Positions 28,060 through 61,173 of a stretch of DNA of 64,000 bases are shown here, one piece after another. The position numbers and the translations under genes were made by a program. A model generated the notes under the pieces. The model made no database searches, was not told where the DNA came from, and was given only the letters and a program-made list of their open reading frames with translations. The first letter of the stretch is position 1, and the number at the start of each line of letters is the position of its first letter. This DNA comes from an uncultured delta proteobacterium (GTDB lineage Bacteria; Desulfobacterota; Binatia; UBA9968): NCBI GenBank assembly GCA_963816145.1, contig CAWFJP010000031.1, positions 160,001 through 224,000 of the forward strand, read 5' to 3'.

Positions 28060-28175
28060 CAAGGCATCATTGGGATGGTTTGAAAGACGCACTAAACTGC
28101 TCTTGGATGGATTGTACTTGCCATGAGCTGGTACTAAATTCGCACTAGGTCAATCAAACCAATGAGGAGACGTCA

Positions 28176-28821
28176 ATGGAAATCGTTCTTTACTACGCCC
28201 CCAACACCTGCGCGCTCGCTCCCTATGTCACGCTGGCCGAGGCCGGCGCCGATTTCGAGGTCCGGCCGCTCGATTTCCGCAAGCGGCAGAATTTCTCGCC
28301 CGAGTACCTGAAGATAAACCCCAAACACAAGGTGCCCGCGCTGGTGATCGACGGCAAGATCCTGACCGAGAACGTCGCCATCCATCAATGGGTCCATCGA
28401 ACCTTTCCCGGCAGCGAAGATCCTGCCCGCCGATCCGTGGGAGCAGTTGCAGGCGATCTCGCTGCATGGCTGGTGTGCCAGCGGCATCCACCCCTATCTG
28501 AGCCGGATCAACAACCCGCCCAAAGTCTGCGACGCCAACGGCGCGTCCGATAGCGTGATCAAGTTTGCCACCGAAGCGCTCTTCGAGAACTTCAAAATCG
28601 GTGATGATTTGCTCGCCGGGCGCGAATACTTCTTCGACCATTTCACCGCCCCGGACGCGCATTTCTTTTGGTGTTGCCGGCGCGCCACCCAATTGAAAGT
28701 GGACATCTCAGGCTTCGCCAACGTCGCGGCGCATTTCAAGCGCATGCAGAAGCGCCCGAGCGTCAAGAAGCTCGTCGCCTATGAGAAAGAAGTGAATGAA
28801 GGGTTTGCCAAGACGGCCTAG
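28176..28821 (+). pseudogene. Glutathione S-transferase, +1 frameshift near 28410 (cassette copy A)
   Basis: Near-identical to the intact copy at 60335-60979; extra G in ACCTTTCCCGGCAGCG. Confidence 0.85.
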
Positions 28822-28988
28822 GAACCACTCGAGTTGCGCAGACACACGCAGTTGCCGAGCATCGCGCGGCGCCTTACGAGGCATCAGCGAGACGGACACC
28901 AAAATTTTTCGAACTGTGATTAAGATCAACGCCGAAAATAGCAAAGTCAAGATTCAGGACTCTGCCCTGAATCGTTCTCGGGAGTAAT

Positions 28989-29960
28989 ATGCCACGAACC
29001 GCAGCCGTGATCGGCCGATCAGGTTTTCGCATTCCAGCCCTTCTGCTGATCGCCGTCATGGCGCTTGCGGTCGGCTGGGCTCGCCGCTTTCCGAAGCCTG
29101 AAGTCACGACGATTAAAGTCCCCAACCCCGCCGAGCTCCAGCGATATATACTGTCGCGCAAGCCCGACGTAGCGCAATTCAAGTTACGTGGACCCTTTGC
29201 CGTCACCGAGCGCAAAGACCTGGAAATCCCGCTGGCTTCCGGTCTCACAGTGACAGCGGACTTGTACCTGTGCGCAGTGGCCCAAAAAGCCCCTTTGGTC
29301 ATCGTGTTGCACGGTTACGACAATTCCAAGAGGGACCATGCCTTCCAAGCGATGCATTTGGCCTCCTGGGGCATGCATGCCATGGCCATCGACTTGCCCA
29401 ATCACGGTCCGTGGATTGCCAACGGCAGAACTCTTGCCAGGCTGGTCGACGCGATTCATCGGAGGCCGCAGCTCGTCGACGAGCGCATCGACGCGGACAA
29501 GATCATTCTGATGGGCCACTCATTCGGCGCGACCGCCATCGCCACCGCGTTGGGGGAAAAAGCCCCCGCGTTGGGTGGCGTGCTTCTCGATCCCGCCGGC
29601 ATCGGCCGGGAATTGCCGAAGTTGCTGCAGCGGATCACCCGTCCGGTGATGGTGATCGGTGCGGACGAGGACATCTGGCCTACTCGCAACCGCGGGCAAT
29701 TTTACCGCTTCATTCCGCGCGCGGTCGGCGAGATCTCGATACGGGACACGCTCCACGAAGATGCACAGTATCCGAACGAGCACACGCTGCGCGCATTCGA
29801 GGACAAGCCCGATGACACCGAGGAAGCGCAGATCGCTTTCGTCAGCGCGCTGACCGCTTCCGCCTTCGGCCTTGCGGCCACCGGCGGCATAGACTATGGC
29901 TGGAACAGCTTTGACCAGGCCATTAAGAACGGCACTTTTTTCAACGCGAGGAGAAAATAA
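28989..29960 (+). CDS. Exported or membrane-anchored alpha/beta hydrolase (cassette copy A)
   Basis: N-terminal hydrophobic segment; VLHGY, GHSFG nucleophile elbow, GADED, LHEDAQ; TAATG coupling to the next gene. Confidence 0.88.
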   Translation: MPRTAAVIGRSGFRIPALLLIAVMALAVGWARRFPKPEVTTIKVPNPAELQRYILSRKPDVAQFKLRGPFAVTERKDLEIPLASGLTVTADLYLCAVAQKAPLVIVLHGYDNSKRDHAFQAMHLASWGMHAMAIDLPNHGPWIANGRTLARLVDAIHRRPQLVDERIDADKIILMGHSFGATAIATALGEKAPALGGVLLDPAGIGRELPKLLQRITRPVMVIGADEDIWPTRNRGQFYRFIPRAVGEISIRDTLHEDAQYPNEHTLRAFEDKPDDTEEAQIAFVSALTASAFGLAATGGIDYGWNSFDQAIKNGTFFNARRK

Positions 29961-30874
29961 TGGTCATCCCTTCAGTCCTATCGTCGGTGCAAGGATGGAA
30001 CACTGCGGCAGCGCGCCTGACCGTTTTGATCATCATCGTGCAGGCGCTTGGGCTTCGAGCTGTCTGGCCACAGGAACCCAATGAAGCGCGGCTCGACGAG
30101 GAAATCTCCAAGCAGGACAAAATCTACCAAAGGCGGGGCGCCGATATTCCCCGTGGCTACGTCACCAACCGAGGGCTCACGAACTACGCGGAGCTTCTTC
30201 CCGCGGGTTTCTGCGCCGCTCTCGGCAAGCTTGGCAGCTCGGATCGCTGGCTCGATATCGGCGCAGGCTCCGGACAAGCGATACTGGACTACTATGTGCC
30301 CGAAGCCGGTGCGGCGTCCGGCGAAAATTGCGTCGGGCCCGGCGCCAAGGCTCGCGCTGTCGCGATGTCCATAGAGGAACGGCAAACCGACAAGTGGCGA
30401 GAGCAAGCCGCGAGTCTCGGCGGCGACCGTATGCGCTACCTCAGCGGCAAGCGTCTGCGCCAATATTCGCCCGAGGAGTTGGGGAAATTTCAGCTCATTA
30501 CCGACGTGTTCGGCGGTTTCTCCTATACCGAGGACTTGTCCCAGTTCGTTGACAAGGTGCTGAGCTTGCTGGAGGTCGGCGGCGCCTTCTACACCCTGCT
30601 GCCAGGCGTGCACTTAGAGAATGACCAGGATAAACTCGGCATCTTGTATTTGACCGAGCTGGAGGGGGCTGCCGGCCGCCCCGAGAAAGTGTGCTCCTGG
30701 TTGAAGAAGACCACCTGCGCGAAAGTCGGCTGCGAGTCCAAGAGCGACTGGAAAAGGCCCACCGAGCTGATAAAAGTCGAGAAGGTCTGCAGCGATGTCT
30801 CTGTCCCGCGCATGAAATTATTGGAGTTCGAGGCGGGATATCCTCCCGGCCGGCGCTTCCAATTGGAGCAGTAG
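29960..30874 (+). CDS. Secreted SAM-methyltransferase-fold protein, paralog 1
   Basis: Signal-like N-terminus; WLDIGAGSG, FQLITDVFGG, LEVGGAFY; six Cys. Confidence 0.85.
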   Translation: MVIPSVLSSVQGWNTAAARLTVLIIIVQALGLRAVWPQEPNEARLDEEISKQDKIYQRRGADIPRGYVTNRGLTNYAELLPAGFCAALGKLGSSDRWLDIGAGSGQAILDYYVPEAGAASGENCVGPGAKARAVAMSIEERQTDKWREQAASLGGDRMRYLSGKRLRQYSPEELGKFQLITDVFGGFSYTEDLSQFVDKVLSLLEVGGAFYTLLPGVHLENDQDKLGILYLTELEGAAGRPEKVCSWLKKTTCAKVGCESKSDWKRPTELIKVEKVCSDVSVPRMKLLEFEAGYPPGRRFQLEQ

Positions 30875-30969
30875 GGGTGGTGGAGTTGAATTCACAGCGC
30901 CGGTGCGCGATGAACAAAACGAAAAGCTGGAAAGTCTGGAGGTAAAAATCTTAACGTTCATTGCCCGTG

Positions 30970-31153
30970 TGAATCGTTCTCAGGATTAACCTGCCGGGAA
31001 CCGCGGCCGCGATCGACCAATCAGATTCCAGCCCTGCTGATCGTCCTCATGGCGGCTTCGGTCTTCCGGCCACCGGCGGTGTAAATTATGGCTGGAACAG
31101 CTTTGAGAAGGCTATCAACAACAGCCGCCTTTCCAACACGAGGAGGAAGTAAT
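30970..31153 (+). pseudogene. Internally deleted remnant of the alpha/beta hydrolase (5' end fused to 3' end)
   Basis: TGAATCGTTCTC..GAACCGC matches ~28968-29060; GCCACCGGCGG..TATGGCTGGAACAGCTTTGA matches ~29876-29960. Confidence 0.8.
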
Positions 31154-31157
31154 CGTC

Positions 31158-32039
31158 GTGCGTTCAGTTATATCGTCAGTGAAAAAATCGAGGACCGCGG
31201 GAACGCTCCTCGCCGTTGTGATCTTCCTGCAAGCGATTAGCGCTAGCGCTGGCTGGCCACAGGAATCCGCTCCACCGCGGATCGACGAAGAATTCACCAA
31301 GCAGGAAACAATCTACCGCGGCCGGGGCGCCGACGGTACGAGAGGCTATATTACCAGCCGAGGGCTTTCGGACTATGTGGCACTACTTCCCTCCGGCTTC
31401 TGCAACACGCTCGCCAAGCTCGGCAGCGCGGACCGATGGCTGGATATCGGAGCGGGCGCCGGACTGGCGATATTGGACTACTACAATCTCGCAAAGTGCG
31501 CTCGGCGTGGCGTCAAGGCGCGTGCGGTGGCGATGTCGATCGAGGATCGCCGGAGCGATGCATGGAAAAAGCAGGCGGCGAGCCTCGACGCCAACCGGCT
31601 ACGCTATCTCACCGGCAAGCGTCTGCGGCATTATTCACCCGAGGAGCTGGGGAAATTCCAGATGATTACCGATGTCTACGGCGGCTTCTCCTACACCGAA
31701 GACTTGTCCCAGTTCGTAGAGAAGGTGCTTAGCCTCCTGGAGGCCAAGGGTGTCTTCTACACGATGTTGCAAGGCGTGCGTTTAGAGAATGGCAAGGACC
31801 AACCCGATACGGCTTATCAAACCGAGCTGCTGGACCCGGCCAGTGGCAACGTGAAAGTTTGCTCCTGGCTGAAGAAGATAAGCTGCGTGAAGGTTGGCTG
31901 TGAGTCGAGCAGTGAATGGGCACCCACCGAGCGGATCAATATCCGGAAGGTCTGCAGCGATGTATCCGTTCCGCGCTTGAAATTATTGGAATACCAGTCT
32001 GGGGCTCCTCCCGGCAGGCGATTCCAATTGGCGCCATAG
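31158..32039 (+). CDS. Secreted SAM-methyltransferase-fold protein, paralog 2
   Basis: WLDIGAGAG; six conserved Cys; PPGRRFQL C-terminus. Confidence 0.85.
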   Translation: MRSVISSVKKSRTAGTLLAVVIFLQAISASAGWPQESAPPRIDEEFTKQETIYRGRGADGTRGYITSRGLSDYVALLPSGFCNTLAKLGSADRWLDIGAGAGLAILDYYNLAKCARRGVKARAVAMSIEDRRSDAWKKQAASLDANRLRYLTGKRLRHYSPEELGKFQMITDVYGGFSYTEDLSQFVEKVLSLLEAKGVFYTMLQGVRLENGKDQPDTAYQTELLDPASGNVKVCSWLKKISCVKVGCESSSEWAPTERINIRKVCSDVSVPRLKLLEYQSGAPPGRRFQLAP

Positions 32040-32088
32040 GGCTGGTGGAATTGCATTCATGCGTGCCGGTGCGCGATGAATAAAAAGC

Positions 32089-32193
32089 GACATAGAGGGT
32101 CGACATAGAGGGTCGCATCTTTACTTAAGGCGTTCGACTGTCGATTACCCACGGGTTATCGGGCCGGGCCTGGGTATTGAGTTATTTTTTCCC
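32089..32193 (+). repeat. ~90-bp dispersed element, copy 2
   Basis: Matches 4973-5062; GACATAGAGGGTC is tandemly duplicated at the left edge. Confidence 0.85.
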
Positions 32194-32415
32194 GCGGCCG
32201 TCGGTAGAGGTGCGCTTGGTCAGCGTCTTGGAGAATGCCATGACTAACGAAGGGCAGATCAGTTATCTGAAAGCCTACCACCGCCTCGGCGGCTGGTTCC
32301 CGCGCGCGGCCAAGGACTCAGCGAGCGTCCGCTGAGAGGACCGCGCTCTCGCATCGACCGCGCGTGGTGCGACCGACGAAAATCCGAAATCTCAAAATAC
32401 AAGACTTGACACCGA

Positions 32416-32716
32416 TGCGGTCTTGTCGAGAGAGCCGAAGAATGGCAGTGGTCTAGTCTTTGTCGGAGTGCTCGACACGACGGGAAGTTTGCCGACTTTT
32501 TGAGTCCGTGGCCGATGGGGCGACCGCAAAACTGAATTGAATGGATCAACGAGCCGGATAAAGCGTCGGAGTTGGATGACCCACGATCAAGCGCGCAGCG
32601 AGGCCGGCCTTTCGGTAGCGAAGAGTGAATGATCAACATCGCCAAGAAACTTGGGCTTGAAGCGACCATGCATTCGCGCGGCCGTCCAAAGCGAAAGTAA
32701 AAGACTCCCGACCCCC
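32416..32716 (+). pseudogene. 3' half of a REP-associated tyrosine transposase (RAYT) with flanking REP-like motif
   Basis: GLVERAEEWQWSSL...QRGRPFGSEE*...LGLEATMHSRGRPKRK* with two internal stops; followed by AAAGACTCCCGACCCC. Confidence 0.8.
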
Positions 32717-32731
32717 TTTTCGCTTGCCACA

Positions 32732-33088
32732 CTAGTCAAGCCCTTTCGCTCCTTTGGACTTCAAGTAATCTCTGGTCGAAGGCGTCAGTCCCGTGGCGCC
32801 CTCGAAGGAGGCGCCATCTGCGACCACGTTCGTAAGATCGGCACCCGCCAATTTTGCTCCGTCGAAACTTGCATGGGTTAATTTGGCGTTTCTCAGGTTT
32901 GCGCCGGTCAGGTCGCAGCTGTTCAGGCGCGCGTGATTTAAGCAACAACCTTCCAAATCCGCCCTCCGCAACTCTAAGCTGGAAAAATCCATGAAGGATA
33001 GAAAGAGGTTGCGCAGATCAACCCCGACCAAACTTTCATGGTTGTAAACCCGCTTCAGGATATGTTTTAAATCTCTTCCGTTCGGCAT
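32732..33088 (-). CDS. Pentapeptide repeat protein
   Basis: ADLEG-CCLNH-ARLNS-CDLTG-ANLRN-AKLTH repeats; GGAGG RBS. Confidence 0.9.
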   Translation of the reverse strand: MPNGRDLKHILKRVYNHESLVGVDLRNLFLSFMDFSSLELRRADLEGCCLNHARLNSCDLTGANLRNAKLTHASFDGAKLAGADLTNVVADGASFEGATGLTPSTRDYLKSKGAKGLD

Positions 33089-33100
33089 TTTTCAGCCTCC

Positions 33101-34324: not shown

Positions 34325-34522
34325 CAGCCCCATTCTCGCCCTTAGCTCTACAACTTCTTGTTTGCCATCGCGGCGGCTTCCCGCAAAAGACGCAACTTCG
34401 CCCCGGCGGACGGGCGCTGGACTCGCCTGCCTAGGCCGCAGTCGTCGCGTTAACAAAAGCCGTTGGACAGCTACGCCCCGTCTGTTTTCGCCACGGCAAT
34501 CTCGTTGAAGTAGGGGAGTGCG
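34325..34522 (-). repeat. MetE-II 3'-end repeat, copy 5, with shared extension
   Basis: Reads DCGLGRRVQRPSAGAKLRLLREAAAMANKKL*; extension shared with the 11.9 kb copy. Confidence 0.8.
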
Positions 34523-34695
34523 CTTGAGAGGCGAGAGCGTTAAGCAACTAAGCAACCCGTGACCCCGGCGCACTGCTCGGAGCCGGCTCGCTTGCGAGTT
34601 GACACAACGCAGCCCATGCGGCTAAGTTCCAGCGCAAATGGCCGGCGGCGACCGTGCGCGGTTTCTGGCTCAGCCAGACAAAAAAAGGAAATTAT

Positions 34696-36141: not shown

Positions 36142-37140
36142 TCACCGATAGAGTGCATCGATAAATCCGGATTTGTCCATCTCTTCGAGTAAACTTACGT
36201 CGATAAAATCCCTCGGGTTCGCTGTCTTGGCCGCGGGAATCCGCTCGCTGGCATCTTTAATGATGGTCCTAAAGCCTTCGATCGACGGATAGGGCTTGGG
36301 TTTGACGATCTCGCGCAGCGCTTGGTAGGCGTCGTCGATGCGCTTGTCGTCTTTGGTTTGCCGGTATTTGGCAAAGGCCTTTCTGGAAATATCGGGATTG
36401 GTCTTCACCAGGTGGATCGCCTCGACGTAGGACTTGAGAAAACGCCGGACGAGATCGCGCTTGCGCGCCAGCACCCGCTGGGTCGTGACCAGCCCGCTGC
36501 CTTGAAACGCAATGTTCAAATCGCGCAGATTGAGCAAGATCTTCATGCCGGCGCGCAGCGCTTCCAGATGGTCTGGAGGCGAGATCAGAGTGGCGTCGAT
36601 GGCACCGCCGGATATCGCCATCAGCCGTTCCGGACTATCGCCGACCTGGAGCAGCGTGACGTCCCGCTCGCTCAAGCCGTAGCGCGGCAGCACGTAGATC
36701 AAACGCAAATGCGAGGCTGCGCCGAAGCGGAAAACGCCGATCCGTTTTCCCCTGAGATCTTCCATGGATTTGATATTGGGACGCGCCACCAGCCGGTCGT
36801 CGAGGGTGTCTTGCACGCCGGCAATCATCACCGGATCGGCTCCTTGCAGCCTGGCGGAGGACATGAGGGAGCCCGTCATCTGGCCGAAATCAACCTCGCC
36901 CGCCACCAAAGTTTCGATCGCCGCGCGGGTGTAAACGATTTCCGCGCTGATGCCGTTCTTGGGTAAAAGCCCGCTGACTTCGGCAACCCACAACACCCCT
37001 TGGCTCGGCGAAACCGCCGAGAACGCCACTCTGACTTTATCCGCGGCAAAACTTGGCGGGGCAAGAACAATCACCAGCAGAATGCTGAATCCAAGAACCG
37101 GCAATTTGTTGCTGCCGGATAGGGATCGCGGGCAGAACAT
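36142..37140 (-). CDS. ABC transporter solute-binding protein, NitT/TauT family
   Basis: Signal peptide; DLRGKRIGV, KPYPSIEG, EMDKSGFIDALY. Confidence 0.92.
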   Translation of the reverse strand: MFCPRSLSGSNKLPVLGFSILLVIVLAPPSFAADKVRVAFSAVSPSQGVLWVAEVSGLLPKNGISAEIVYTRAAIETLVAGEVDFGQMTGSLMSSARLQGADPVMIAGVQDTLDDRLVARPNIKSMEDLRGKRIGVFRFGAASHLRLIYVLPRYGLSERDVTLLQVGDSPERLMAISGGAIDATLISPPDHLEALRAGMKILLNLRDLNIAFQGSGLVTTQRVLARKRDLVRRFLKSYVEAIHLVKTNPDISRKAFAKYRQTKDDKRIDDAYQALREIVKPKPYPSIEGFRTIIKDASERIPAAKTANPRDFIDVSLLEEMDKSGFIDALYR

Positions 37141-37163
37141 GATGGACCCCCGGTAGGTTTTTT

Positions 37164-37299
37164 GGGTAGTGGTTCAGTCAGATAGAGATCTCTCACTTCG
37201 TTCGAGATGACATGGCGAGTATTCTGCTGTCATTTCGAGCGAAGCGAGAAATCTTTCTCAGGCTGAAAACGTCCGCCCGACTCAAACTGAACCGCTAGC
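37164..37299. mobile_element. MITE family B, copy 1
   Basis: GGTAGTGGTTCAGT...ACTGAACCGCTA TIR; 7-bp flanking direct repeat GTTTTTT; internal GTCATTTCGAGCGAAGCGAGAAATCT inverted pair. Confidence 0.8.
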
Positions 37300-37446
37300 G
37301 TTTTTTTTGCGCACGCCGCAGGTGCCGAAACCTTCCACAGCTGCGTTTGGTCGGACGATAGTCGAGTCATTGCGCAGCGTCAAGCACAATCAACGTCAGC
37401 ACTTGGGGTTAAATCGTTGCCTTTGATATCGCTGCAGATTCTGGAA

Positions 37447-37605: not shown

Positions 37606-37930
37606 CGAAGTAGCGGGGGAATTCCGGCGAGCCGAGGCGCCGAATTGACCGCGCTTTTGATCACCGCATCCTAGGACTCTTCGAGCACAGCGCGATCTCC
37701 GATGCGAAAGTATTTGCCATGGTTTTCATAGGAAACCTGGCAGGGCAGGAGGGCAGGCAAAAGTTATTGACCGAAGATACGGAAAGTGTATCTAGGACCT
37801 CAGTACGAAGCGAAGGACTCGAGGCAAGAACGGGATCACGCCCCGCGGGCATTTCCGGGACGACCCGCAGACAAGGAGCAAGTCCACGTCACGTCTTAAA
37901 GAACGGAAGTTTTATCAGCGCGAGGAAAAT

Positions 37931-38833
37931 ATGATCGCCAAGAGTTCAGTCAAATGGTCGGCGAAAGCATGGAATGCTACGGCGGCGCGCGTGGCCGTTG
38001 TGATCGTCATGGCGGTGCAGTCGCTTGGAACTGGCTGGACTCAGGAGCCTGTGCAACCGCGGCTCGACGAGGAATTCGCAAAGCAGGAAAAAATTTACCG
38101 CAGACGGGATGCCGGGAGCTACACTGCGAACCGCGGGCTGTCGAACTACGCGGAGGTTCTTCCCACCGGCTTCTGCGACGCCCTCGGCAGGCTCGGCAGC
38201 TCGGACCGATGGCTGGATATCGGCGCGGGCGAGGGGCACGCCATACTCGACTACTACGCACCGCAAGGCGATGCGGCTGCTGAAAAGTGCGGCGGATCCG
38301 GTCCCAGGGCGCGCGTGGTCGCGATCTCCATCGAGAATCGCCGGACGGCCAAATGGGAAGAGCGGGCCGCGAGCCTCGGCGCTGACCGCATACGGTATCT
38401 CTCCGGCAGACGTCTGAGCCAGTATTCGCCCGAGGAACTTGGCAAATTCAAGATCATCACCGATGTGTACGGCGGCTTCACTTACACGGAGAATTTGTCC
38501 CGATTCATCGAGAAGGCGCTGAGCTTGCTGGAGATCGGCGGCGCCGTCTACACGGTGTTGCCGGCCGTGCACTTGGAGGATGGCGCGGACAAACTCGGCG
38601 CCTGGTATAAGACCGAGCTGGTGGATGCAGCCAGCCGCCCGGTAAAAGTTTGCTCCTGGCTTAAGCAGACAAGCTGCACAAAAATCACCTGCGAGTCGAA
38701 GACCGACTGGGACGAACCCACGCAGTTGATAGAGATTCGCAAGGTTTGCAGCGGCGTTTCGGTCCCGCGCACGAACCTTGTGGAGTACATAGCGGGGGCT
38801 CCTCCCGGCAGGCGATTTCAATTGGAACCGTAG
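37931..38833 (+). CDS. Secreted SAM-methyltransferase-fold protein, paralog 3
   Basis: WLDIGAGEG; six Cys; preceded by a remnant of the hydrolase stop region (KNGSFISARK). Confidence 0.85.
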   Translation: MIAKSSVKWSAKAWNATAARVAVVIVMAVQSLGTGWTQEPVQPRLDEEFAKQEKIYRRRDAGSYTANRGLSNYAEVLPTGFCDALGRLGSSDRWLDIGAGEGHAILDYYAPQGDAAAEKCGGSGPRARVVAISIENRRTAKWEERAASLGADRIRYLSGRRLSQYSPEELGKFKIITDVYGGFTYTENLSRFIEKALSLLEIGGAVYTVLPAVHLEDGADKLGAWYKTELVDAASRPVKVCSWLKQTSCTKITCESKTDWDEPTQLIEIRKVCSGVSVPRTNLVEYIAGAPPGRRFQLEP

Positions 38834-38915: not shown

Positions 38916-39016
38916 GAGGGTTAACTCGGTGACATTGCTCCATGTGCTGGAGCTCAGCGCGGCCACAGACTTTCACTTCTCGGCAACTGCGCGGGTCTGC
39001 GAAACTCGCTAGTTGT

Positions 39017-39120
39017 CTAGACCGTCTTGGCAAACGCTTTATTCTTTTCCTTCTCGTAGGCGAGCAGCTACTTGAAGCTCGGACATTCCTCGATCCCGCG
39101 AAATGCGCCGCGACGTTGAA
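39017..39120 (-). pseudogene. Decayed 3' end of the cassette GST gene
   Basis: AACGTCGCGGCGCATTTC...CTCGCCTACGAGAAGGAA...TTTGCCAAGACGGTCTAG matches the GST tail. Confidence 0.8.
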
Positions 39121-40930: not shown

Positions 40931-41090
40931 GTTTAGGCCCTTCAATCTTAACAATCGTTCAGGTTCTCGGTTCCACAACATCTTGCCGGCGATGGCCGCG
41001 CCCTCGCGCAGCACCCATAACTTCGCCCAAGCAATCTGCGGCTGTACGCGCCCGCCGAGGCCGCAGTCGTCAGGTTAACACAAGCCGTCT
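40931..41090 (-). repeat. MetE-II 3'-end repeat, copy 7
   Basis: Reads DCGLGGRVQPQIAWAKLWVLREGAAIAGKMLWN plus the TTCAATCTTAACAATC terminal motif. Confidence 0.85.
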
Positions 41091-42199: not shown

Positions 42200-42272
42200 C
42201 AGAAACTTGGGCGTGAAGCGACAATGCATTCGCGCGGTCGTCCAAAGCGAAAGTAACAAGACTCCCGACCGC
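42200..42272 (+). pseudogene. Short RAYT 3'-end remnant
   Basis: AGAAACTTGGGC.TGAAGCGAC.ATGCATTCGCGCGG.CGTCCAAAGCGAAAGTAA.AAGACTCCCGACC matches 32645-32713. Confidence 0.8.
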
Positions 42273-42300
42273 TTTTTCGACCCCCCGAGTTTCATTCGTT

Positions 42301-44092: not shown

Positions 44093-44325
44093 TGTCAACG
44101 GTATTTTTACGGCCTGTTGTAGCAAAGTGAATCTGACAGGGTCTAATAGCAACGTAATTATGTCAGGGTGGAAGGATGACAACCCTGACGATGAAAGACG
44201 AGAAACGACTGGACGTAATTCAACGAGTGTATCGCAGCGAGCTGACTGTTGAGGCAAGCCCACGATACTGGACTCAGCGAACGGCATTGTTACCGGGTCA
44301 AAGCGCGGGTGAACAAGGTGACATG
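44093..44325 (+). mobile_element. Left end and N-terminal transposase remnant, IS1202/IS481-like
   Basis: TGTCAA terminus; MTTLTMKDEKRLDVIQRVYRSELTV then shifted LGLSERHCYRVKARV HTH. Confidence 0.7.
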
Positions 44326-44406
44326 GGATCACTTTTACATCCAGACTTTCCAGCTTTTAGTTTTGTTCATCCCGCACGGGCGCTTTTGCATTCAACGCCA
44401 ACGCCA

Positions 44407-44543
44407 CTACGGTTCCAATCGGAATCGCCTCCCGGGAGGATACCCGCTTCGAACTTCAATAGTTTTGGGCGCGGGACAGAGACATCGCTGCCGACCTTCT
44501 GGATGTTGATCAGCTCGGTGGGCGTGTCCCAGTCGCTCTTCGA
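44407..44543 (-). pseudogene. 3' fragment of a sixth secreted MTase paralog
   Basis: SKSDWDTPTELINIQKVGSDVSVPRPKLLKFEAG plus the conserved downstream 70 bp (44340-44405). Confidence 0.85.
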
Positions 44544-44650: not shown

Positions 44651-45475
44651 TCAGTCGCAGTTCTTAAGCTTGGATTCCTGACAGCGGCGTGCCATCTCCT
44701 GCGCGGTTTCAATCTGCTCGGCGGTCATTTTTGACGCGATTCCATCTCGATTCTTTGCCGCCGTATCTCCAGAATCGCCGCCCAATGCTGCGGCAGCGAG
44801 GTTAAACCACATATACGCGCGCACAAAGTCCAGCCGCACGCCTGTGCCATGGGTATACATCACACCCAGATTAACCTGGGCAAATTCGTTTCCCTGCGCA
44901 GCGGCGAGGCGATACCACTTCACGGCTTCCGGAAAATCCTGCGGCACGCCCTGGCCTTTTTCATACGCCACACCCAGACTGTACTCTGCCGGTGCGTATC
45001 CCTGAGCCGCCGCGAGGCGATACCACTTTACAGCCTCGTGAAAATCCTGCGGCACGCCTTGCCCCTCAGCATATATCGAACCCAGCCTCGTCTGCGCCCA
45101 TTCGTCTTCCCGCCCCGCTGCGATGCGATACCACTTCACGGCTTCCTGAAAATCCTGCGGCACGCCTTGCCCTTTCTCATACGCCAGACCGAGGCTGTAC
45201 TGCGCCGGGACATTTCCCTGCGCTGCCGCGAGGCGAAACCACTTTACAGCCTCCTGAAAATCCTGCGGCACGCCTTTCCCCTCTGCATAGATCAAACCGA
45301 GCCGCCGCTGCGCCCATTGGTGTCCCTGCTCGGCAAGCTGGCGAAAGAGTTTCATCGCCTGAACATAGTCGCCGCGCTCGTACGCAACGCTTGCGTCATC
45401 AAAAGGGTTTGCTGCGGCAAAACTACAGCTGCCGAGCAGATAAAGAATGGCGAGCAAATACAGGTTGGTTTTCAT
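44651..45475 (-). CDS. Sel1-like repeat exported protein
   Basis: Signal peptide; five 36-aa repeats G.GVPQDF.EAVKWYRLAA.QG. Confidence 0.92.
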   Translation of the reverse strand: MKTNLYLLAILYLLGSCSFAAANPFDDASVAYERGDYVQAMKLFRQLAEQGHQWAQRRLGLIYAEGKGVPQDFQEAVKWFRLAAAQGNVPAQYSLGLAYEKGQGVPQDFQEAVKWYRIAAGREDEWAQTRLGSIYAEGQGVPQDFHEAVKWYRLAAAQGYAPAEYSLGVAYEKGQGVPQDFPEAVKWYRLAAAQGNEFAQVNLGVMYTHGTGVRLDFVRAYMWFNLAAAALGGDSGDTAAKNRDGIASKMTAEQIETAQEMARRCQESKLKNCD

Positions 45476-45615
45476 GGCGATCCCCATGCCGTTACCGACT
45501 GTGGCTTGCCTGACCGCGACTGTCACACGAATACGCTGTTGACGTCATGAATCCTGGGTCATCGCGTAATCGAGTGGGCACTGACTTAATGGCAAATTAC
45601 TCTCCCATGGCCGGT

Positions 45616-45714
45616 TCCTCCCTTTCGCAAAGGGAGGTTAGGAGGGATTTTTCATGGCTTGAAAGATCGTCTTCTGCACAAAATCCCCCCAACCCCCCTT
45701 TTCTAAAGGGGGGT
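45616..45714. repeat. REP-like compound hairpin
   Basis: CTCCCTTT..AAAGGGAG and CCCCCTTT..AAAGGGGG with AGGGATTT/AAATCCCC arms. Confidence 0.65.
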
Positions 45715-45832
45715 GAAACCTACAAGAACAGCATTTCTCAACAAATTTTACCCACTCGATTACGCGAAGAGCCTGAATCTTAATATTGCTAATTTTTCGG
45801 CTTGCTCTTTATCCGTCCCGGCACGGCGTTGC

Positions 45833-45871
45833 GCATGCGCTTGAAATGCGCCGCGACGTTGGCGAAGCCTG
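45833..45871 (-). pseudogene. Short remnant of the cassette GST near its 3' end
   Basis: GCATGCGCTTGAAATGCGCCGCGACGTTGGCGAAGCCTG is identical to 60409-60447. Confidence 0.8.
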
Positions 45872-45932
45872 CGATTCAACCCCCAAATGCGTGGCGCGGC
45901 CCTGATCCAACTGCGAGCCATGTTGCATTACC

Positions 45933-46844
45933 CTACGGGTCCAATTGGAAGCGCCGCGCGGGAGGATATCCCGCCTCGAACTCCCATAGTTTCAGGTGCG
46001 GGACCGAAACGTTGCTGCAAACCTTCCGAATATTTATCAGCTCGGTGGGCCTTTTCCAGTCGCTCTTCGACTCACAGGTAACTTGCGCGCAGGCGGTCCG
46101 CTTCAGCCAGGAGCAAACTTTCTCGGGGCGGCCGGCGGCATCCTCCAGCTCGGTCAGATACAAGATGCCGAGTTTGTCCTTGCCATCCTCTAAATGCACG
46201 CCTGGCACCAGCGTGTAGAAGGCGCCGCCGATCTCCAGCAACCTCAGCACTCTCTCGACAAACCCGGACAAGTCCTCGGTATAGGAGAAGCCGCCGAACA
46301 CGTCGGTAATGATCTGGAATTTTCCAAGCTCCTCGGGCGAATACTGGCGCAGACGTTTGCCGGAGAGATATCGTACACGGTCATCGCCGAAGCTCGCGGC
46401 CTGGTCTCGCCACCTGTCGGTCCGGCGGTCCTCGATGGACATCGCGACCGCGCGCGCCTTCTCCACGGACCGGCCGCATTTTTGAGCCGGCGCCGCGTCG
46501 ACTGCGGACGCATGGTAGTCCAGTAGGGCCTCGCCGGCGCCCGCTCCGATATCCAGCCATCGGTCGGAGCTGCCAAGCCTGCCGAGCGCGTCGCAGAAGC
46601 CGGAGGGAAGAAGCTCCGCGTAGTCCGAGAGCCCTCGGTTGGTGACGTAGCCGCTAGGCACTTCGGCGCCCCGGCTGCGGTAGATCTTTTCCTGCTTGGT
46701 GAATTCCTCGTCGAGCCGCGGTTGAGCGGGTTCTTGCGGCCAGCCAACTTCCAGCCCAAGCGCCGGCACGACGATGGCGATCACAACGGCCAGGCGCGCT
46801 GCCGCAGCCTTCCATCCTTTCCCCGACGATGTGACTGAACCCAT
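45933..46844 (-). CDS. Secreted SAM-methyltransferase-fold protein, paralog 4
   Basis: WLDIGAGAG; six Cys; preceded by TTTTTCAACGCGAGGAG, the hydrolase 3'-end remnant. Confidence 0.85.
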   Translation of the reverse strand: MGSVTSSGKGWKAAAARLAVVIAIVVPALGLEVGWPQEPAQPRLDEEFTKQEKIYRSRGAEVPSGYVTNRGLSDYAELLPSGFCDALGRLGSSDRWLDIGAGAGEALLDYHASAVDAAPAQKCGRSVEKARAVAMSIEDRRTDRWRDQAASFGDDRVRYLSGKRLRQYSPEELGKFQIITDVFGGFSYTEDLSGFVERVLRLLEIGGAFYTLVPGVHLEDGKDKLGILYLTELEDAAGRPEKVCSWLKRTACAQVTCESKSDWKRPTELINIRKVCSNVSVPHLKLWEFEAGYPPARRFQLDP

Positions 46845-47002
46845 GACGATTACTTACTCCTCGCGTTGAAAAACGTCGATAACGAAACGTTGTTGACGAA
46901 GTGGACTAGCGCTGTTCAGCGGCCATTTCCCGGTCGCAGGTCAACGGTGGCGGAATTTGTCCCGTTGGTCAACAATGCAACCTTCCACGCGCACAATCTC
47001 CG

Positions 47003-47160: not shown

Positions 47161-48839
47161 TTACTTTGGCGCAGCCGCTTTGCGCCGGCCGATGGCGGCC
47201 TCGGCTCGCGGGCTGATCGCGCGCTCCACCGCGACGTTCAGCAGCGCCGGCTTGTTGGCGGCGAGCGCGCGCTCCAACGACGGCTTTAGATCGTCGGGAC
47301 GCTCGACAAACTCGCCGTAACCGCCAAGGCCTTGCACCACCTGATCGTAACGGCTTTGACGCAGATCGGTGGCGACGGCGCGACCGTAGAGACCGAGCTG
47401 GATTTGCCGGTCGATGCCCCACGCCGAATCGTTGCCGATGATCGCGACGATATTCAGTCCATGGCGCACGGCGGTGTCGAATTCCATGCCGTTAAAGCCA
47501 AAAGCGCCGTCGCCGGTGAGCATGAAGACGCGCGAATTCGGATAAGCGACCTTGGCCGCCAGCGCGGTGGGCAACGAGGATCCCAACATGCCGAGGCTGG
47601 AAACGTTGAACCAGCGCTTCGGTTTGACCGCCGGGAGATAAGACCTGCCGAAATGACAAAAATCGCCGCCATCGAACACCAGACAGTCGTCGGGGCGGAG
47701 TATGGATTTTAGCGTCTTGTGGACGAAGAGCGCGTGCATCGGCGTGTTGGGCTGCGCGAGCTTTTCCGCCCACTCGGCCTGGGCCGCCGCGCGGCGCGCA
47801 GTTCCTCCAGCCACGGGAGATCCTTCCACTGGTAGTTGGCCGCCTCCTGGGTCATCTGCTCCAGGATGCTCGTGACATCGCCTGCCATGCCGACATCGAC
47901 GCCGCGATTGCGGCCGATCTCCAGCGGCGAAGGATCGATCTGAATAATCTTCGCGTTCGCCGCGACATGCGGCGGGCGGCAATAACCGATGATGAAGTCT
48001 TGCTTGCGGCCGAGCAGCACGACCACGTCGGCGTCGCGGACTTTGGCCGCCGCGCGATTCAGGCCGCGCTCGAAGTAGCCGAAGACGTAGGGGTGATCGT
48101 CAGGAACCAGACCGCGCGACTGCTCTTCGGTCACGATCGGCAGGCGCGTCGTTTCGATGAAGCGTTGCATCGCTTCGCCCGAGAGCGTGTAGCCGGCGGC
48201 GCTGCCGGCGATCAGCAGCGGCCGCTGCGCTTGGCGCAAGAGCGCGACCGCCTGCCGCACTTGTTTGGGATCGCCGAGCACGGCGGCATTGGGCCGGTAG
48301 GCATCAGGAGCTATCAACGTCACGTCGTTTTCCTCGACGCTTTGCTCTTGCACGTCGATGGGAATCGTCAAATGCACCGGCCCGCGCCGCCCGCTGAACG
48401 CCAGGCGCATGGCGCGGGCGATGTATTCAGGAATCCTGCGCGCATCCGGAACCATGAACGAACCCTTGCACATGGGTTCGGCCATGCCAACTTGATTGAT
48501 TTCTTGTTGGGCGCCGCGGCCTAAATCATGGGTGTCTGCGCAACCGGCGATGGAAATCACCGGGCCCTCGGTGTGCATCGCATTGGTGAGGCCGGGAATT
48601 GCGTTGGCGAATCCCGGCGTGGTGTACATGCAGACGCCGGGCTGCTCGGTGATGCGGCTCCAGGCATCCGCCATGTGGACGGCGGCTTGCTCATGACGGG
48701 TGTCGAGGACGCGAAAGTCCTGATCCGCCATCACGTCCAATACCGGCAGTATGTGATCGCCCGCCAGAGCGAAGATATTTCTGACGCCTTCGAGCTTGAG
48801 CGCTTTGCAGATCAGATGACTTCCCGTGAGTCGGGCCAT
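47161..48839 (-). pseudogene. Thiamine pyrophosphate-dependent enzyme (acetolactate synthase / 2-hydroxyacyl-CoA lyase-like), frameshift near 47790
   Basis: TRHEQAAVHMAD and GPVHLTIP in one frame; GDGAFGF...GNDSAWG in another; may be a sequencing indel. Confidence 0.85.
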
Positions 48840-48881: not shown

Positions 48882-49014
48882 GGGTAATGGTTCAGTTTGA
48901 GTCGGGCGCAAATCTTCATGAGACAGATTTCTCGCTGTGCTCGAAATGACAGCAGAATAGTCGCATTGTCATCTCGAACGAAGTGAGAGATCTCGGTCTA
49001 ACTAAACCACTACG
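48882..49014. mobile_element. MITE family B, copy 2 (inverted)
   Basis: GGTAATGGTTCAGTT...AACTAAACCACTAC; 7-bp flanking direct repeat CCTCGAT. Confidence 0.8.
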
Positions 49015-57862: not shown

Positions 57863-58057
57863 AAATTCTGTAGAGGAAATTCAAACCGACTTTTTATCCT
57901 GACCGAGCAGTATAGCCGGACCCGGCAGTTGTCAATCGCGTTTCTGTTTGATGAAATTCGCGACTTTGCTTCGGTCGGATAATGGAATAGCGGGCAGCTA
58001 TTCCTTCTAAACTTTCTTCCTTCCTGTTTGGTTCATCCCGCACAGGCACTCTTGAAT

Positions 58058-58148
58058 TCAACTCCACAACTTCGTGCTCGCTATCGCCGCGCCTGCGCGC
58101 AGGACGCGCAACTTGGCCCAGGCGATTTGCGCAGGACGCGGCGCCCGT
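58058..58148 (-). repeat. MetE-II 3'-end repeat, copy 8
   Basis: Reads QIAWAKLRVLRAGAAIASTKLWS*. Confidence 0.85.
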
Positions 58149-58222
58149 TGAGGTGTGCTTGATTTTTTTATGAGTGACCATGATCTTCGCGGTTCCCGGA
58201 CTGCGAAGCATATTCCATCGGC

Positions 58223-59134
58223 CTACGGCTCCAACTGGAATCGCCTTCCGGGGGGATTCCCCGCCTCGTACTTCAGTAATTTCATGCGCGGGACGGAGAC
58301 GTCGCTGCAAACCTTGCGGATGTTGATCAACTCGGTGGGCGCGTTCCAGTCGGTCTTCGACTCGCAGGCGACTTTTGCGCAGGTGGTCTGCTTCAGCCAG
58401 GAGCACACTTTTACGTCACGGCCGGCTGCATCCACCAGCTCGGTCTGATACGAGTTGTCGGGTTTGTCCTTGCCATCCTCTAAATGCACGCCTTGCACCA
58501 GCGTGTAGAAGACGCCGCCGGTCTCCAGCAAGCTCAGCACCTTCTCCAGGAACTGGGACAAGTCTTCGGTATAGGAGAAGCCGCCGTACACGTCGGTAAT
58601 GATCTGGAATTTTCCAAGGTCCTCGCGCGAATAGTGCCGCAGGCCTTTGCCGAAAAGATAGCTAATACGGTCATCGCCGAGACTCGCGGCTTGCTGTTGC
58701 CACTTGTCCGTCCGGCGGTCCTCTATGGACATCGCGACCGAGCGCGCCCTGCCGGCCAACTGGGCGCACTTTCCAGCCGGGACCGCGTCGTCTACGGGTG
58801 CATAGTAGTCGAGTATCGCCTGCCCTTCGCCCGTTCCGACATCAAGCCATCGGTCCGAGCTGCCCAGGCTGCCGAGCGCGTCACAGAACCCGGAGGGAAG
58901 AAGTTGCGCATAGTCCGAGAGCCCTCGGTTGGTGACGTAGCCGCTGGGAACTTCGGCGCCCCGGCTGCGGTAGATTTTTTCCTGCTTGGCGAATTCCTCG
59001 TCGATCCGCGGTTGAGCGGGTTCCTGTGACCAGCCAGTTCCCAGCCCAAGCGCCTCTAGGACGATGACGATCAGAACGGCCAGGGGCGCTGCCGCAGTGT
59101 TCCATCCTTGCACCGACGATCTGACTGAAGCCAT
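58223..59134 (-). CDS. Secreted SAM-methyltransferase-fold protein, paralog 5 (cassette copy B)
   Basis: WLDVGTGEG; six Cys; PPGRRFQLEP. Confidence 0.85.
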   Translation of the reverse strand: MASVRSSVQGWNTAAAPLAVLIVIVLEALGLGTGWSQEPAQPRIDEEFAKQEKIYRSRGAEVPSGYVTNRGLSDYAQLLPSGFCDALGSLGSSDRWLDVGTGEGQAILDYYAPVDDAVPAGKCAQLAGRARSVAMSIEDRRTDKWQQQAASLGDDRISYLFGKGLRHYSREDLGKFQIITDVYGGFSYTEDLSQFLEKVLSLLETGGVFYTLVQGVHLEDGKDKPDNSYQTELVDAAGRDVKVCSWLKQTTCAKVACESKTDWNAPTELINIRKVCSDVSVPRMKLLKYEAGNPPGRRFQLEP

Positions 59135-59139
59135 GACAA

Positions 59140-60113
59140 TTATTTTCTCCTCGCGTTGAAAAAAGTGCCGTTCTTAATGGCCTGGTCAAAGCTGTTCCAG
59201 CCATAGTCTATGCCGCCGGTGGCCGCAAGGCTGAAGGCGGAGGCGGTCAGCGCGCTGACGAAAGCGATCTGCGCTTCTTCGGTGTCATCGGGTTCGTCTT
59301 CGAATGCGCGCAGCGTGTGCTCGTTCGGATACTGCGCATCTTGGTGGACCGTGTCCCGTATCGAGATCTCGCCGACCGCGCGCGGAATGAAGCGGTAAAA
59401 TTGCCCGCGGTTGCGGGTGGGCCAGATGTCCTCGTCCGCACCGATCACCATCACTGGAGCGGTGATCCGCTGCAGCAACTGCCGCAATTCCCGGCCGATC
59501 CCGGCAGGATCGAGGAGCACGCCACCGAACGCGGGGGCTTTTTCCCCCAACGCGGTGGCGACGGCGGTCGCGCCGAATGAGTGGCCCACCAGAATGATCT
59601 TGTCCGCGTCGATGCGCTCGTCGACGAGCTGCGGCGTCCGATGAATCGCGTCGACCAGCCTGGCAAGGGTTCTGCCGTTGGCGATCCACGGGCCACGTTT
59701 GGGCAAGTCGAGGGCCAGGCTATGCATGCCCCAGGAGGCCAAGTGCTTCGCTTGGAAGGCATGATCCTCCTTCGAATTGTCGAGACCGTGCAACACGATC
59801 ACCAGGGGAGCCTTGCGGGCCGCCGCGCACAGGTACAAGTCCGCTGTCCGCCGTGAGACCGGAAGCCAGGGAGATTTCCAGGTCTTTGCGCTCGCTGACG
59901 GCAAAGGGCCCGCGCAACCTGAATTGTGCGACGTCGGGTTTGCGGGATAGTAGATATCGTTGGAGCTCGGCGGGGTTATCGGTCTTTATCGTCGTGACTT
60001 CAAGGCCCGGAAACCGGCGAGCACAGCCGACCGAATGCGCCATGAGCGCGATCAGCAGCAAGGGCTGAAATGCGAAAACCTGATCGGCCGATCACGGCTG
60101 CGGTTCCTGGCAT
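59140..60113 (-). pseudogene. Alpha/beta hydrolase with two +1 frameshifts (cassette copy B)
   Basis: Colinear with 28989-29960; extra bases near 60060 and 59848; lipobox-like SVGC where copy A has AVGW. Confidence 0.85.
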
Positions 60114-60334
60114 ATTACTCCCGAGAACGATTCAAGGCAGAGTCTTGAATCTTGACTTTGCTATTTTCGGTTTTGCTCTTAATAACACTTCGAAAATTTT
60201 GCTGTCCGTCTTGAAATGGAAATGGGCGGCGCGATTTCTCCCCTCTCGCTGATGCCCCTTCTCGTCCTCGAAAGGCACACCGAGCTACTTCTACTTCTCG
60301 GCAACTGCGTGTGTCTGCGCAACTCGAGTGGTTC

Positions 60335-60979
60335 CTAGGCCGTCTTGGCAAACCCTTCATTCACTTCTTTCTCGTAGGCGACGAGCTTCTTGACGCTCGG
60401 GCGCTCCTGCATGCGCTTGAAATGCGCCGCGACGTTGGCGAAGCCTGAGATGTCCACTTTCAATTGGGTGGCGCGCCGGCAACACCAAAAGAAATGCGCG
60501 TCCGGGGCGGTGAAATGGTCGAAGAAGTATTCGCGCCCGGCGAGCAAATCATCACCGATTTTGAAGTTCTCGAAGAGCGCTTCGGTGGCGAACTTGATCA
60601 CGCTATCGGACGCGCCGTTGGCGTCGCAGACTTTGGGCGGGTTGTTGATCCGGCTCAGATAGGGGTGGATGCCGCTGGCACACCAGCCATGCAGCGAGAT
60701 CGCCTGCAACTGCTCCCACGGATCGGCGGGCAGGAGCTTCGCTGCGGGGAAGGTTCGATGGACCCATTGATGGATGGCGACGTTCTCGGTCAGGATCTTG
60801 CCGTCGACCACCAGCGCGGGCACCTTGTGTTTCGGGTTGATCTTCAGGTACTCGGGCGAGAAATTCTGCCGCTTGCGGAAATCGAGCGGCCGGACCTCGA
60901 AATCGGCGCCGGCCTCGGCCAGCGTGACATAGGGAGCGAGCGCGCAGGTGTTGGGGGCGTAGTAAAGAACGATTTCCAT
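60335..60979 (-). CDS. Glutathione S-transferase family protein (cassette copy B)
   Basis: LYYAPNTCA, YLKINPKHKVPAL, LTENVAI, FTAPD; GAGGAG RBS. Confidence 0.92.
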   Translation of the reverse strand: MEIVLYYAPNTCALAPYVTLAEAGADFEVRPLDFRKRQNFSPEYLKINPKHKVPALVVDGKILTENVAIHQWVHRTFPAAKLLPADPWEQLQAISLHGWCASGIHPYLSRINNPPKVCDANGASDSVIKFATEALFENFKIGDDLLAGREYFFDHFTAPDAHFFWCCRRATQLKVDISGFANVAAHFKRMQERPSVKKLVAYEKEVNEGFAKTA

Positions 60980-61173
60980 TGATGTCTCCTCATTAGTCTG
61001 ATTCCCGATAATTCCCGCCTCTTGAGTCGGGCACAAATTTGCTGGGCTTTCCGAAGCGTTCGGACATCCCCTTTTGGTCGTGCGCGGGGTTCAAACTCGA
61101 CTCACGAAGTTCGCTTGACCGACCGATTGCGAACTTGGTTCTCCGGGCACCGTCTGGATGGCCATCGACTTCT

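Follow-up and report, generated by a model that had tools for sequence, protein, structure and literature searches.

A family of predicted-exported proteins with the fold of class I S-adenosylmethionine (SAM)-dependent methyltransferases, encoded beside a predicted lipoprotein esterase and multiplied to five intact copies, is described here. The copies lie within a stretch of 64,000 nucleotides (nt), hereafter the window, at positions 160,001-224,000 of contig CAWFJP010000031.1 of an uncultured delta proteobacterium of the Binatia, whose genome comprises 7.8 Mb in 31 contigs with an estimated contamination of 6.72%. Judging from the sequences, we lean, at a little less than an even chance, towards an active methyltransferase that would work outside the cytoplasm together with the esterase, the paralogs being specificity variants. 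The family (MT in what follows) combines a conserved SAM-type pocket with the sequence marks of export.

Five intact paralogs (MT1 to MT5, each of 293-304 amino acids (aa) as read from the open reading frames (ORFs)) and a fragment of a further one were found in the window by ORF reading, alignment and similarity search, as the earlier note on this DNA had it. They share 64-74% protein identity with MT1 (69% between MT1 and MT5), column identity in the alignment of the five averages 79%, and the E values between copies (1e-118 to 1e-207) exclude a chance resemblance. The signal-like N-terminus ending in W[PTS]QE, the motif I and the six shared cysteines described in that note are likewise present in all five: W36, Q38 and E39 (MT1 numbering) are identical, RWLD[IV]G[AT]GxG is kept, and C85, C124, C245, C253, C258 and C277 are invariant. 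The start codon of MT2 is GTG, and the ATG of MT1 overlaps the stop codon of the hydrolase gene (ATAATG). The fragment (44407-44543, minus strand) represents the last ~45 codons of the family, and the adjoining 44333-44406 matches the region 3' of MT1. The copy list was short by one, a sixth intact gene (47% identical) being found beside a decayed hydrolase gene on contig C16 of the same genome; two scraps of glutathione transferase (GST) genes (38969-39118 and 45833-45898) and a Sel1 lipoprotein gene (44651-45475, minus strand) had also been overlooked. The features, with their coordinates in the window and the evidence for each, are the following.

28176-28821, plus strand: GST1, a cytoplasmic-type glutathione transferase gene, in two frames from one extra base near 28410 (NCBIfam GstA-like match on each half).
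28989-29960, plus strand: HYD1, 323 aa, an alpha/beta hydrolase resembling cutinases, with a signal or anchor at its N-terminus and Trp in place of the lipobox Cys (AVGW) (Pfam Abhydrolase_6, 43.7 bits; PDB cutinase and polyethylene terephthalate (PET) hydrolase matches, E 1.5e-8).
29960-30874, plus strand: MT1, a predicted-exported methyltransferase-fold paralog (ORF, alignment).
30875-30947, plus strand: a conserved stretch 3' of the MT gene, which recurs after MT2 and beside the MT fragment (self-comparison).
30970-31157, plus strand: remains of a deleted hydrolase gene, its 5' end (30970-31063) joined to a 3' tail with AGGAG (31053-31157) (self-comparison).
31158-32039, plus strand: MT2, a paralog with a GTG start (ORF, alignment).
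37899-37930, plus strand: a hydrolase tail scrap carrying the ribosome site of MT3 (self-comparison).
37931-38833, plus strand: MT3, a paralog (ORF, alignment).
38969-39118, minus strand: a GST 3' scrap, convergent with MT3 (matches to 60287-60437 and 28719-28859).
44115-44320, plus strand: an N-terminal helix-turn-helix remnant abutting the MT fragment, which we take to be that of an insertion-sequence transposase because the ORF of one copy resembles the N-terminal part of a transposase (other genome copies at 77-87% identity).
44333-44543, minus strand: the MT fragment (44407-44543) and its downstream stretch (self-comparison; an intact MT stands at the equivalent place in loci L003, L004, L013 and L056).
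44651-45475, minus strand: a Sel1-repeat protein with five Sel1 repeats and its own lipoprotein-type signal (MKTNLYLLAILYLLGSC) (Pfam Sel1, E 2.9e-58; translation).
45833-45898, minus strand: a GST scrap downstream of MT4 (self-comparison).
45933-46844, minus strand: MT4, a paralog (ORF, alignment).
46845-46876, minus strand: a hydrolase tail scrap with the ribosome site of MT4 (self-comparison).
58223-59134, minus strand: MT5, a paralog (ORF, alignment).
59140-60113, minus strand: HYD2, a hydrolase gene with the lipobox kept (SVGC), in three frames from two extra bases near 60059 and 59849 (comparison with the HYD1 cassette).
60335-60979, minus strand: GST2, intact (NCBIfam GstA).

Motif I of the class I SAM-dependent methyltransferases is conserved throughout the family, D98, G100 and G102 being present in 219 of 219 members, and R70, Y75 and D181 are equally invariant, down to about 25% identity. 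E138, in the place of the acidic residue that in this fold ends strand 2 and holds the ribose, is kept in 212 of the 219 and aligns to the equivalent stretch of YcgJ; Y188 and R297 are each kept in 217, and the C-terminal PPxR in 215-217. The family profile matched the solved methyltransferase YcgJ (PDB 1xxl) across motifs I-III (E 2.2e-5), and five Pfam methyltransferase families gave matches, each in 2 to 11 of 32 members (best E 1.9e-6). On these grounds the methyltransferase fold with a SAM-type pocket proposed in the earlier note appears to hold, and a pocket so strictly kept speaks for a functioning enzyme. Outside the SAM motifs, two Arg and two Tyr are also invariant, which may point to an anionic substrate. 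The scan of MT1 against NCBIfam gave no match. Variation among the Binatia-type MTs is clustered in three places, the signal and the loops at 111-130 and 221-230. The ratio of nonsynonymous to synonymous substitution (dN/dS) among the paralogs, a comparison the earlier note had called for, was 0.34-0.46 overall and 0.16-0.64 by segment outside the signal, exceeding 1 only in the signal region, and all five paralogs are thus under purifying selection. A resemblance of the C-terminal region to enterotoxin B chains was rejected as being at chance level (Pfam E 0.012; PDB E 0.7-1.0).

A location of the MT proteins outside the cytoplasm, also proposed earlier, is supported by several independent arguments, namely the signals, the paired cysteines, a Sel1 fusion partner and the lipoprotein neighbours. 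A crude sequence scan picked up a positively charged start followed by a hydrophobic N-terminal 11-mer in all five paralogs of the window, in each of 119 close homologues and in 36 of the 43 full-length representatives of 50% clusters (160 of 167 in total). As a control, the same scan flagged 11 of 33 other long ORFs of the window, mostly solute-binding proteins and transporters or membrane proteins, and none of the GST, thiamine-pyrophosphate (TPP), PrpD or DAO enzymes. No further hydrophobic stretch was found in the MT proteins (maximum 19-mer hydropathy 1.73), and the median net charge before the helix is about +3. In the Burkholderiales-type MTs the signal ends in small-x-small sites (e.g. 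SHS/Q, AHA/Q), and the distant members likewise possess textbook signals with small-x-small ends.

The cysteines come and go in pairs. Among the 219 distinct members, many of which are close kin and stand for few independent events of loss or gain, Cys 84 and 123 are both present in 170 and both absent in 28, with a single one in 1; the corresponding numbers are 194, 19 and 0 for Cys 244 and 257, and 198, 17 and 3 for Cys 252 and 276, as compared with 9-12 singles for alternative pairings. Loss of a whole pair was also seen in single sequences within the six-Cys clade. This is the pattern that three disulfides would predict, and it lends support to the probable disulfide bonding suggested earlier. 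Furthermore, in 12 protein clusters of ~550 aa the C-terminus of the MT is fused to Sel1 repeats, and the free Sel1 protein of the window, which is ~85% the same as the fused module, has a lipoprotein-type signal of its own (LLGSC).

The link to the hydrolase was borne out by a survey of the neighbourhood of homologues, which covered 57 loci from metagenome-assembled genomes (MAGs) of Binatia type and of Burkholderiales. Counting a full hydrolase within 400 nt of a full MT, the two adjoin in 37 of the 57 loci (32 with the hydrolase upstream on the same strand, 5 divergent), a count whose independence is overstated, as many loci are close relatives and some share part of their contigs. The hydrolase was convergent with the MT on two contigs from microbial-mat metagenomes, and an intact MT stands behind a hydrolase-tail scrap in 13 of the 57 loci. 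The GHSFG elbow and the S178-D226-H256 triad of the hydrolase are invariant (26 of 26 rows), and the lipobox Cys (residue 30), judged by eye against the consensus [LVI][ASTVI][GAS]C, is present in 19 of the 20 rows that cover it, as LVGC, AGC or GGC, HYD1 (AVGW) being the exception. Among solved structures, those closest to the hydrolase belong to secreted cutinases, PET hydrolases and lipases (PDB E 1.5e-8 to 1e-4); in Pfam, Abhydrolase_6 scores 43.7 bits against a cut-off of 26.3, and PETase 26.4 against 28. HYD1, the sole hydrolase of the window with an open frame, has Trp in place of the lipobox Cys at 29076-29078; it may not be lipidated, or a base may have been miscalled.

The other partner named in the earlier note, the GST, fared less well. 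A full-length GST was found in only 7 of the 57 loci, and GST2 matches NCBIfam GstA (E 6.6e-29, residues 24-221) with 100.9 bits against an equivalog cut-off of 198, which makes it a generic GST. A Sel1 gene, in contrast, flanks the MT in 20 of the 57 loci, all of them of Binatia type, and two of these (L003, L004) reproduce the window's gene order (MT, GST scrap, Sel1, hydrolase tail, MT), except that the MT fragment of the window is an intact gene there. The GST is a weak, lineage-limited neighbour, and the Sel1 lipoprotein is the better-supported member of the cluster. Between the Sel1 gene and MT4, contig depth over 45342-46008 was high (18-250), contigs of two metagenome runs skip 226 nt (45547-45774), and a 3-nt deletion was seen at 45893; this spacer is thus polymorphic among populations. 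None of the other recurring neighbours in Binatia loci (TctC, solute-binding proteins, TPP enzyme, PrpD, MetE-like, DUF3500) was seen in more than 11 of the 57 loci, and all were read as local synteny. A 632-aa ORF of one locus (L023), considered as a fusion of hydrolase and MT, was rejected as a wrong-frame read-through. PADLOC gave no match for MT4, HYD1 or GST2, Pfam gave no match to secretion-apparatus or delivery families among the window and locus ORFs scanned, and type VI families were without a Pfam match among the 30 window ORFs scanned.

The two cassettes of GST, hydrolase and MT reported in the earlier note are confirmed in gene content and in their mutual match (28152-30875, with MT1, against 61003-58222, with MT5: 87.8% over 2786 nt). 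Neither is complete in the assembly, as GST1 is broken by one surplus base near 28410 and HYD2 by two, near 60059 and 59849. The nucleotide identity between them is a mosaic, of 97-100% in the GST, 84-85% in the first half and 93-97% in the second half of the hydrolase, and 75-88% in the MT; synonymous divergence is lowest in the GST (0.055) and the hydrolase tail (0.10) and higher in the hydrolase front (0.36-0.48) and between MT1 and MT5 (0.39). This mosaic and the low synonymous divergence over the GST and the hydrolase tail point to gene conversion between the cassettes in that part.

The frameshifts in GST1 and HYD2 are probably, at least in part, artefacts. One base at 32711 is missing from the contigs of all four metagenome runs, an indel error in the assembly, and at 28404-28413 contigs without one base were likewise seen in 4 of 4 runs, which could derive from the near-identical GST2 (GST1 and GST2 differ by one indel). 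This comparison of metagenome contigs covered 20 kb of the window, and HYD2 lies outside that span. Two ORFs with pentapeptide repeats on the minus strand (32259-32732 and 32732-33088) lie in the region of site 32711 and may be one gene split by assembly error. A TPP enzyme (47161-48839, minus strand) also appears as two overlapping ORFs, with an extra T at 47786 in one run, and is probably split by an indel error or a strain difference.

The hydrolase gene on contig C16, in contrast to these frameshifted genes, is truly decayed, with a stop codon and the loss of the stretch that holds the GHSFG nucleophile. As had been reported, the three other MTs of the window retain scraps of the hydrolase that include their ribosome-binding site. 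Between MT1 and MT2, ~95 nt from the start and ~105 nt from the end of a hydrolase gene are left (tail at 31053-31157), and upstream of MT3 and MT4 the remnant is reduced to 30-35 nt that encode the conserved end FFNARRK, the Arg codons of which form the AGGAG ribosome site of the following MT. The claim that the MT was retained every time while its partners decayed holds in that MT copies outlast the hydrolase: in a set of 61 related genomes a full hydrolase occurs in 10, always as a single copy, as against 28 full, stop-free MT copies, with up to 6 per genome. The 57 loci likewise hold 71 full MTs and 39 full hydrolases, a count that is biased because the loci were found via the MT. Broken MT copies with stops occur in relatives (G169, G175), and the MT is thus not always kept.

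More than 2148 proteins match the family at E <= 1e-3, none with a precomputed Pfam domain, and they are named "SAM-dependent methyltransferase" in the sources; with clustering at 50%, the matches comprise 563 representatives, of which 52 reach E <= 1e-30. The MAGs that carry a copy bear the labels Candidatus Binatia, "delta proteobacterium" or Thermodesulfobacteriota, at 63-87% identity, or else Burkholderiales or Betaproteobacteria, at 44-59%. A match was found in 15 of 30 species genomes of the genus, in 1 of 6 in the other genera of the family, in 0 of 24 in two other families of the order and in 1 of 150 in the rest of the phylum. At least half of the sampled words of the window are contained in 16 soil and wetland metagenome runs, and no RNA dataset is among the listed runs that carry it. 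Copies were also seen in MAGs labelled Verrucomicrobiia, Nitrospiraceae, Chloroflexota, Streptomyces and Klebsiella (L024, L007, L026, L034 and L054). Of these, L007 and L024 fall among the Binatia-type sequences in the tree; the oddly labelled copies are a matter of mis-binning or gene transfer, and noise from binning may account for a few of the labels.

In a tree of 62 proteins, MT1 groups with L001, MT3 with L021, and MT4 and MT5 with two copies of one locus (L009_5971 and L009_3627, respectively); the C16 copy groups with L044 and L047 inside the Burkholderiales-type clade, and for MT2 no partner was supported. All copies but MT2 thus pair with foreign sequences, which implies that the duplications predate these species and that the lineages have been maintained. 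Similar arrays exist elsewhere: L009 has MT5-, MT3- and MT4-type genes in tandem behind one hydrolase on a 458-kb contig, and genome G167 has three MTs within 4 kb.

We propose that these genes would form a variable-copy accessory cluster of Binatia-type soil and wetland bacteria, common to some Burkholderiales, whose products would act outside the cytoplasm. The esterase would be a lipoprotein serine esterase of the cutinase or lipase kind, and the MT a Sec-exported protein of class I fold with three disulfides and a conserved SAM-type pocket, to which the Binatia would add the Sel1-repeat lipoprotein, sometimes fused to the MT. The MT would probably transfer methyl to an anionic group, a carboxylate or a phosphate, of a substrate that is external or bound to the envelope. 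The esterase would probably share that substrate, either removing the methyl ester or exposing the group for methylation, and the division of labour would be such that the paralogs, as old specificity variants, share one esterase. It is possible, if rather doubtful, that SAM-type methyl transfer takes place in the periplasm itself, where the MT would write a mark on an envelope or external molecule that the lipoprotein esterase erases or by which it is blocked; this needs a so far unknown route for SAM or another donor. In the boldest form of this idea, one might speculate that the pair behaves like a restriction-modification system of the envelope, which would explain why the MT survives and why orphans pile up after decay of the hydrolase.

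Several observations weigh against an active methyltransferase paired with the esterase. We know of no SAM supply to the bacterial periplasm, and a SAM enzyme located there would be without its donor. The window copies score only 12-19 bits against Pfam methyltransferase families with cut-offs of 27-30 (e.g. 18.7 against 27). In the Binatia-type MTs the hydrophobic segment ends in GW-PQE, a poor signal-peptidase site, with a possible ALG site further upstream, and these copies may be uncleaved anchors. An MT without any intact hydrolase is found for five of the six copies here and in three related genomes (G152, G156, G165), which means that the two activities are not strictly interdependent. 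Among distant MT members (23-39% identical, with at least 3.9 kb of context) the hydrolase was found in 0 of 6 loci, and no shared neighbour was found there, PepSY_TM, MMPL/LolA-like, ABC, Hjc and HEAT proteins occurring once each. In one such locus (L070, 1326-6371) the gene of a 529-aa distant member immediately follows that of an MMPL transporter of 1088 aa with a LolA-like domain, a single hint of a lipid-related context.

Orphan copies could also be accounted for if the MT were a non-catalytic protein that binds the esterase in the periplasm, as an inhibitor, an immunity-like guard or a folding helper, and if the orphans gave protection in the manner of orphan immunity genes behind toxin-gene remnants. 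The overlap of the hydrolase stop and the MT start suggests equal dosage, and the intact MTs behind hydrolase-tail scraps (here and in the 13 loci), the patchy spread (15/30 in the genus, 1/6 in its sister genera, 0/24 in two further families of the order, 1/150 in the rest of the phylum) and the fairly high dN/dS (0.34-0.46) speak for such a guard. The Sel1 protein of the cluster fits as well, since Sel1-like repeats mediate the binding of PA5088 to PldB according to one report (PMC13736854). We nevertheless regard a binder, the chief alternative, as unlikely. Pocket residues of a SAM enzyme that are invariant in 219 of 219 members, to about 25% identity, are not expected of a mere binder; the lipobox makes the hydrolase look like a resident envelope enzyme rather than a delivered toxin, and no secretion-apparatus family was matched in Pfam among the scanned window and locus ORFs. 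Moreover, the cassettes diverge less in the hydrolase (84-97% at the nucleotide level) than in the MT (75-88%, the proteins being 69% identical). The MTs might instead be diversifying methyltransferase effectors, released beyond the periplasm to act in other cells (prey, competitors or hosts) where SAM exists, which would remove the problem of the missing donor. The export signals, the expansion with copy-number variation and pseudogene fragments in relatives, and the presence in unrelated lineages, Binatia-type and Burkholderiales, are in keeping with this idea, which is nonetheless quite unlikely: the scanned ORFs nearby gave no Pfam match to secretion or delivery families, lipoprotein partners stay in the envelope, and no positive selection was detected outside the signal region (0.16-0.64 by segment).

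The missing donor would equally cease to be a difficulty if the MT were an ordinary small-molecule methyltransferase that faces the cytoplasm, where SAM is found, with the N-terminal helix as an anchor and the cysteines binding metal or being incidental. The poor cleavage site of the Binatia-type segment and the adjacent cytoplasmic GST speak for such an arrangement. It is made very unlikely by the median charge of about +3 before the helix, which under the positive-inside rule puts the domain outside, by the relatives with classical cleavable signals, by the gain and loss of cysteines in pairs, by the fusion to a module which, as a free protein, bears a lipoprotein signal, and by the lipoprotein nature of the hydrolase partner. 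Finally, the contamination estimate of 6.72% and assembly indel errors such as that at 32711 (one base absent in 4 of 4 runs) raise the question, also put in the earlier note, of whether the copies are artefacts of the assembly, in which strain variants or contaminant contigs were joined into one region. This is hardly credible for copies that differ by 26-36% in protein sequence, far beyond strain variation, five of the six of which group with a sequence from another genome, and which have counterparts in tandem arrays on long contigs of other MAGs (three MTs on 458 kb in L009, three in 4 kb in G167). The active extracytoplasmic methyltransferase working with a lipoprotein esterase is thus the account that we tentatively retain.

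The window has further repeats and mobile sequences. A dispersed intergenic repeat of ~150-200 nt was found at six or more sites, 72-85% alike (1339-1495, 3013-3165, 11856-12037, 34346-34528, 40935-41069 and 58063-58131), without an Rfam match; the Rfam scan of the whole window gave no match, and a search for tRNA genes found none. Over 36671-37337 the summed contig depth was 115-169 in four metagenomes, as against about 10 elsewhere, with many loose ends at 37163-37297, and this segment looks like a widespread repeat or mobile sequence; the repeat 37166-37293 matches 48889-49013 on the opposite strand. The putative transposase remnant (44115-44320; also at 1238-1645 of locus L060) recurs about five more times in the genome, each time in a partial and seemingly truncated form. 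Short repeats of 86-94% identity link 4956-5063 with 32091-32194, 32645-32722 with 42201-42279, and 6573-6859 with 7288-7577.

Neither Pfam nor NCBIfam holds a curated model that covers the MT family, and a literature search for periplasmic, exported or extracellular bacterial methyltransferases, which reached few subscription journals, found none. Within these model and literature searches, the earlier description of the system as undescribed stands: the fold is known, and the location, the partnership and the expansion are not. The periplasm is, to our knowledge, regarded as free of SAM. If the MT is active, it would imply an unknown methyl chemistry on the bacterial envelope together with an unknown supply of the donor; if it is inactive, it would clearly exemplify the conversion of an enzyme fold into a periplasmic protein that binds an esterase.

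The closest solved relative is YcgJ of Bacillus subtilis (PDB 1xxl/2glu), a cytoplasmic protein of unknown function, with which the MT shares the LDxGAGxG motif I, the acidic residue after strand 2 and aligned motifs II and III (profile positions 72-235). The MT family, with scores under all Pfam gathering thresholds, has in addition a predicted signal peptide, a conserved N-terminal region of ~50 aa with the invariant R70 and Y75, and a C-terminal region with two Cys pairs and the invariant PPxR tail. A eukaryotic protein, METTL9, is called the first secreted methyltransferase in the abstract of a 2025 preprint, which underlines how unusual an extracytoplasmic location is; it resembles the MT, as we read it, in its signal peptide and its action outside the cytosol, but it belongs to another family.

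Among hydrolases with tandem partners, one report (PMC13736854) describes PldB, a type VI lipase effector encoded with the periplasmic immunity proteins PA5086-PA5088, where the Sel1-like repeats of PA5088 bind PldB. The likeness to the window lies in a lipolytic enzyme beside tandem genes for periplasmic partners and in the Sel1-like repeats. The hydrolase of the window, however, carries a lipobox, and its fold is cutinase-like rather than of the phospholipase D kind; the partner that has been multiplied, the MT, keeps an enzyme pocket, unlike the immunity proteins. More generally, the hydrolase differs from the lipase effectors of type VI effector/immunity pairs (Tle/Tli), which lack a signal peptide and are encoded next to vgrG/PAAR or other type VI genes, in having both a signal and a lipobox, and the 30 window ORFs scanned were without a type VI match.

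In the operons of a lipase and its membrane-anchored foldase (LipA/Lif), too, the gene for an exported alpha/beta hydrolase is translationally coupled to that for an N-terminally anchored periplasmic protein that follows it. Pfam scans of the MT copies list no Lif family, only weak methyltransferase and chance matches, and the MT, unlike Lif, has a methyltransferase fold and survives without the hydrolase. A methyltransferase that outlives its hydrolytic partner is familiar from the orphans of restriction-modification systems; these act on DNA in the cytoplasm, and the comparison is one of analogy only, with no homology implied. A class I methyltransferase paired with an esterase is known from CheR/CheB, from LCMT-1 with the alpha/beta hydrolase PME-1, and from the pectin methyltransferase and methylesterase of the plant Golgi. 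No sequence relationship to any of them was found and the bacterial examples are cytoplasmic, but the plant pair shares with the MT and its esterase, as we read them, a non-cytosolic compartment and a type II membrane anchoring.

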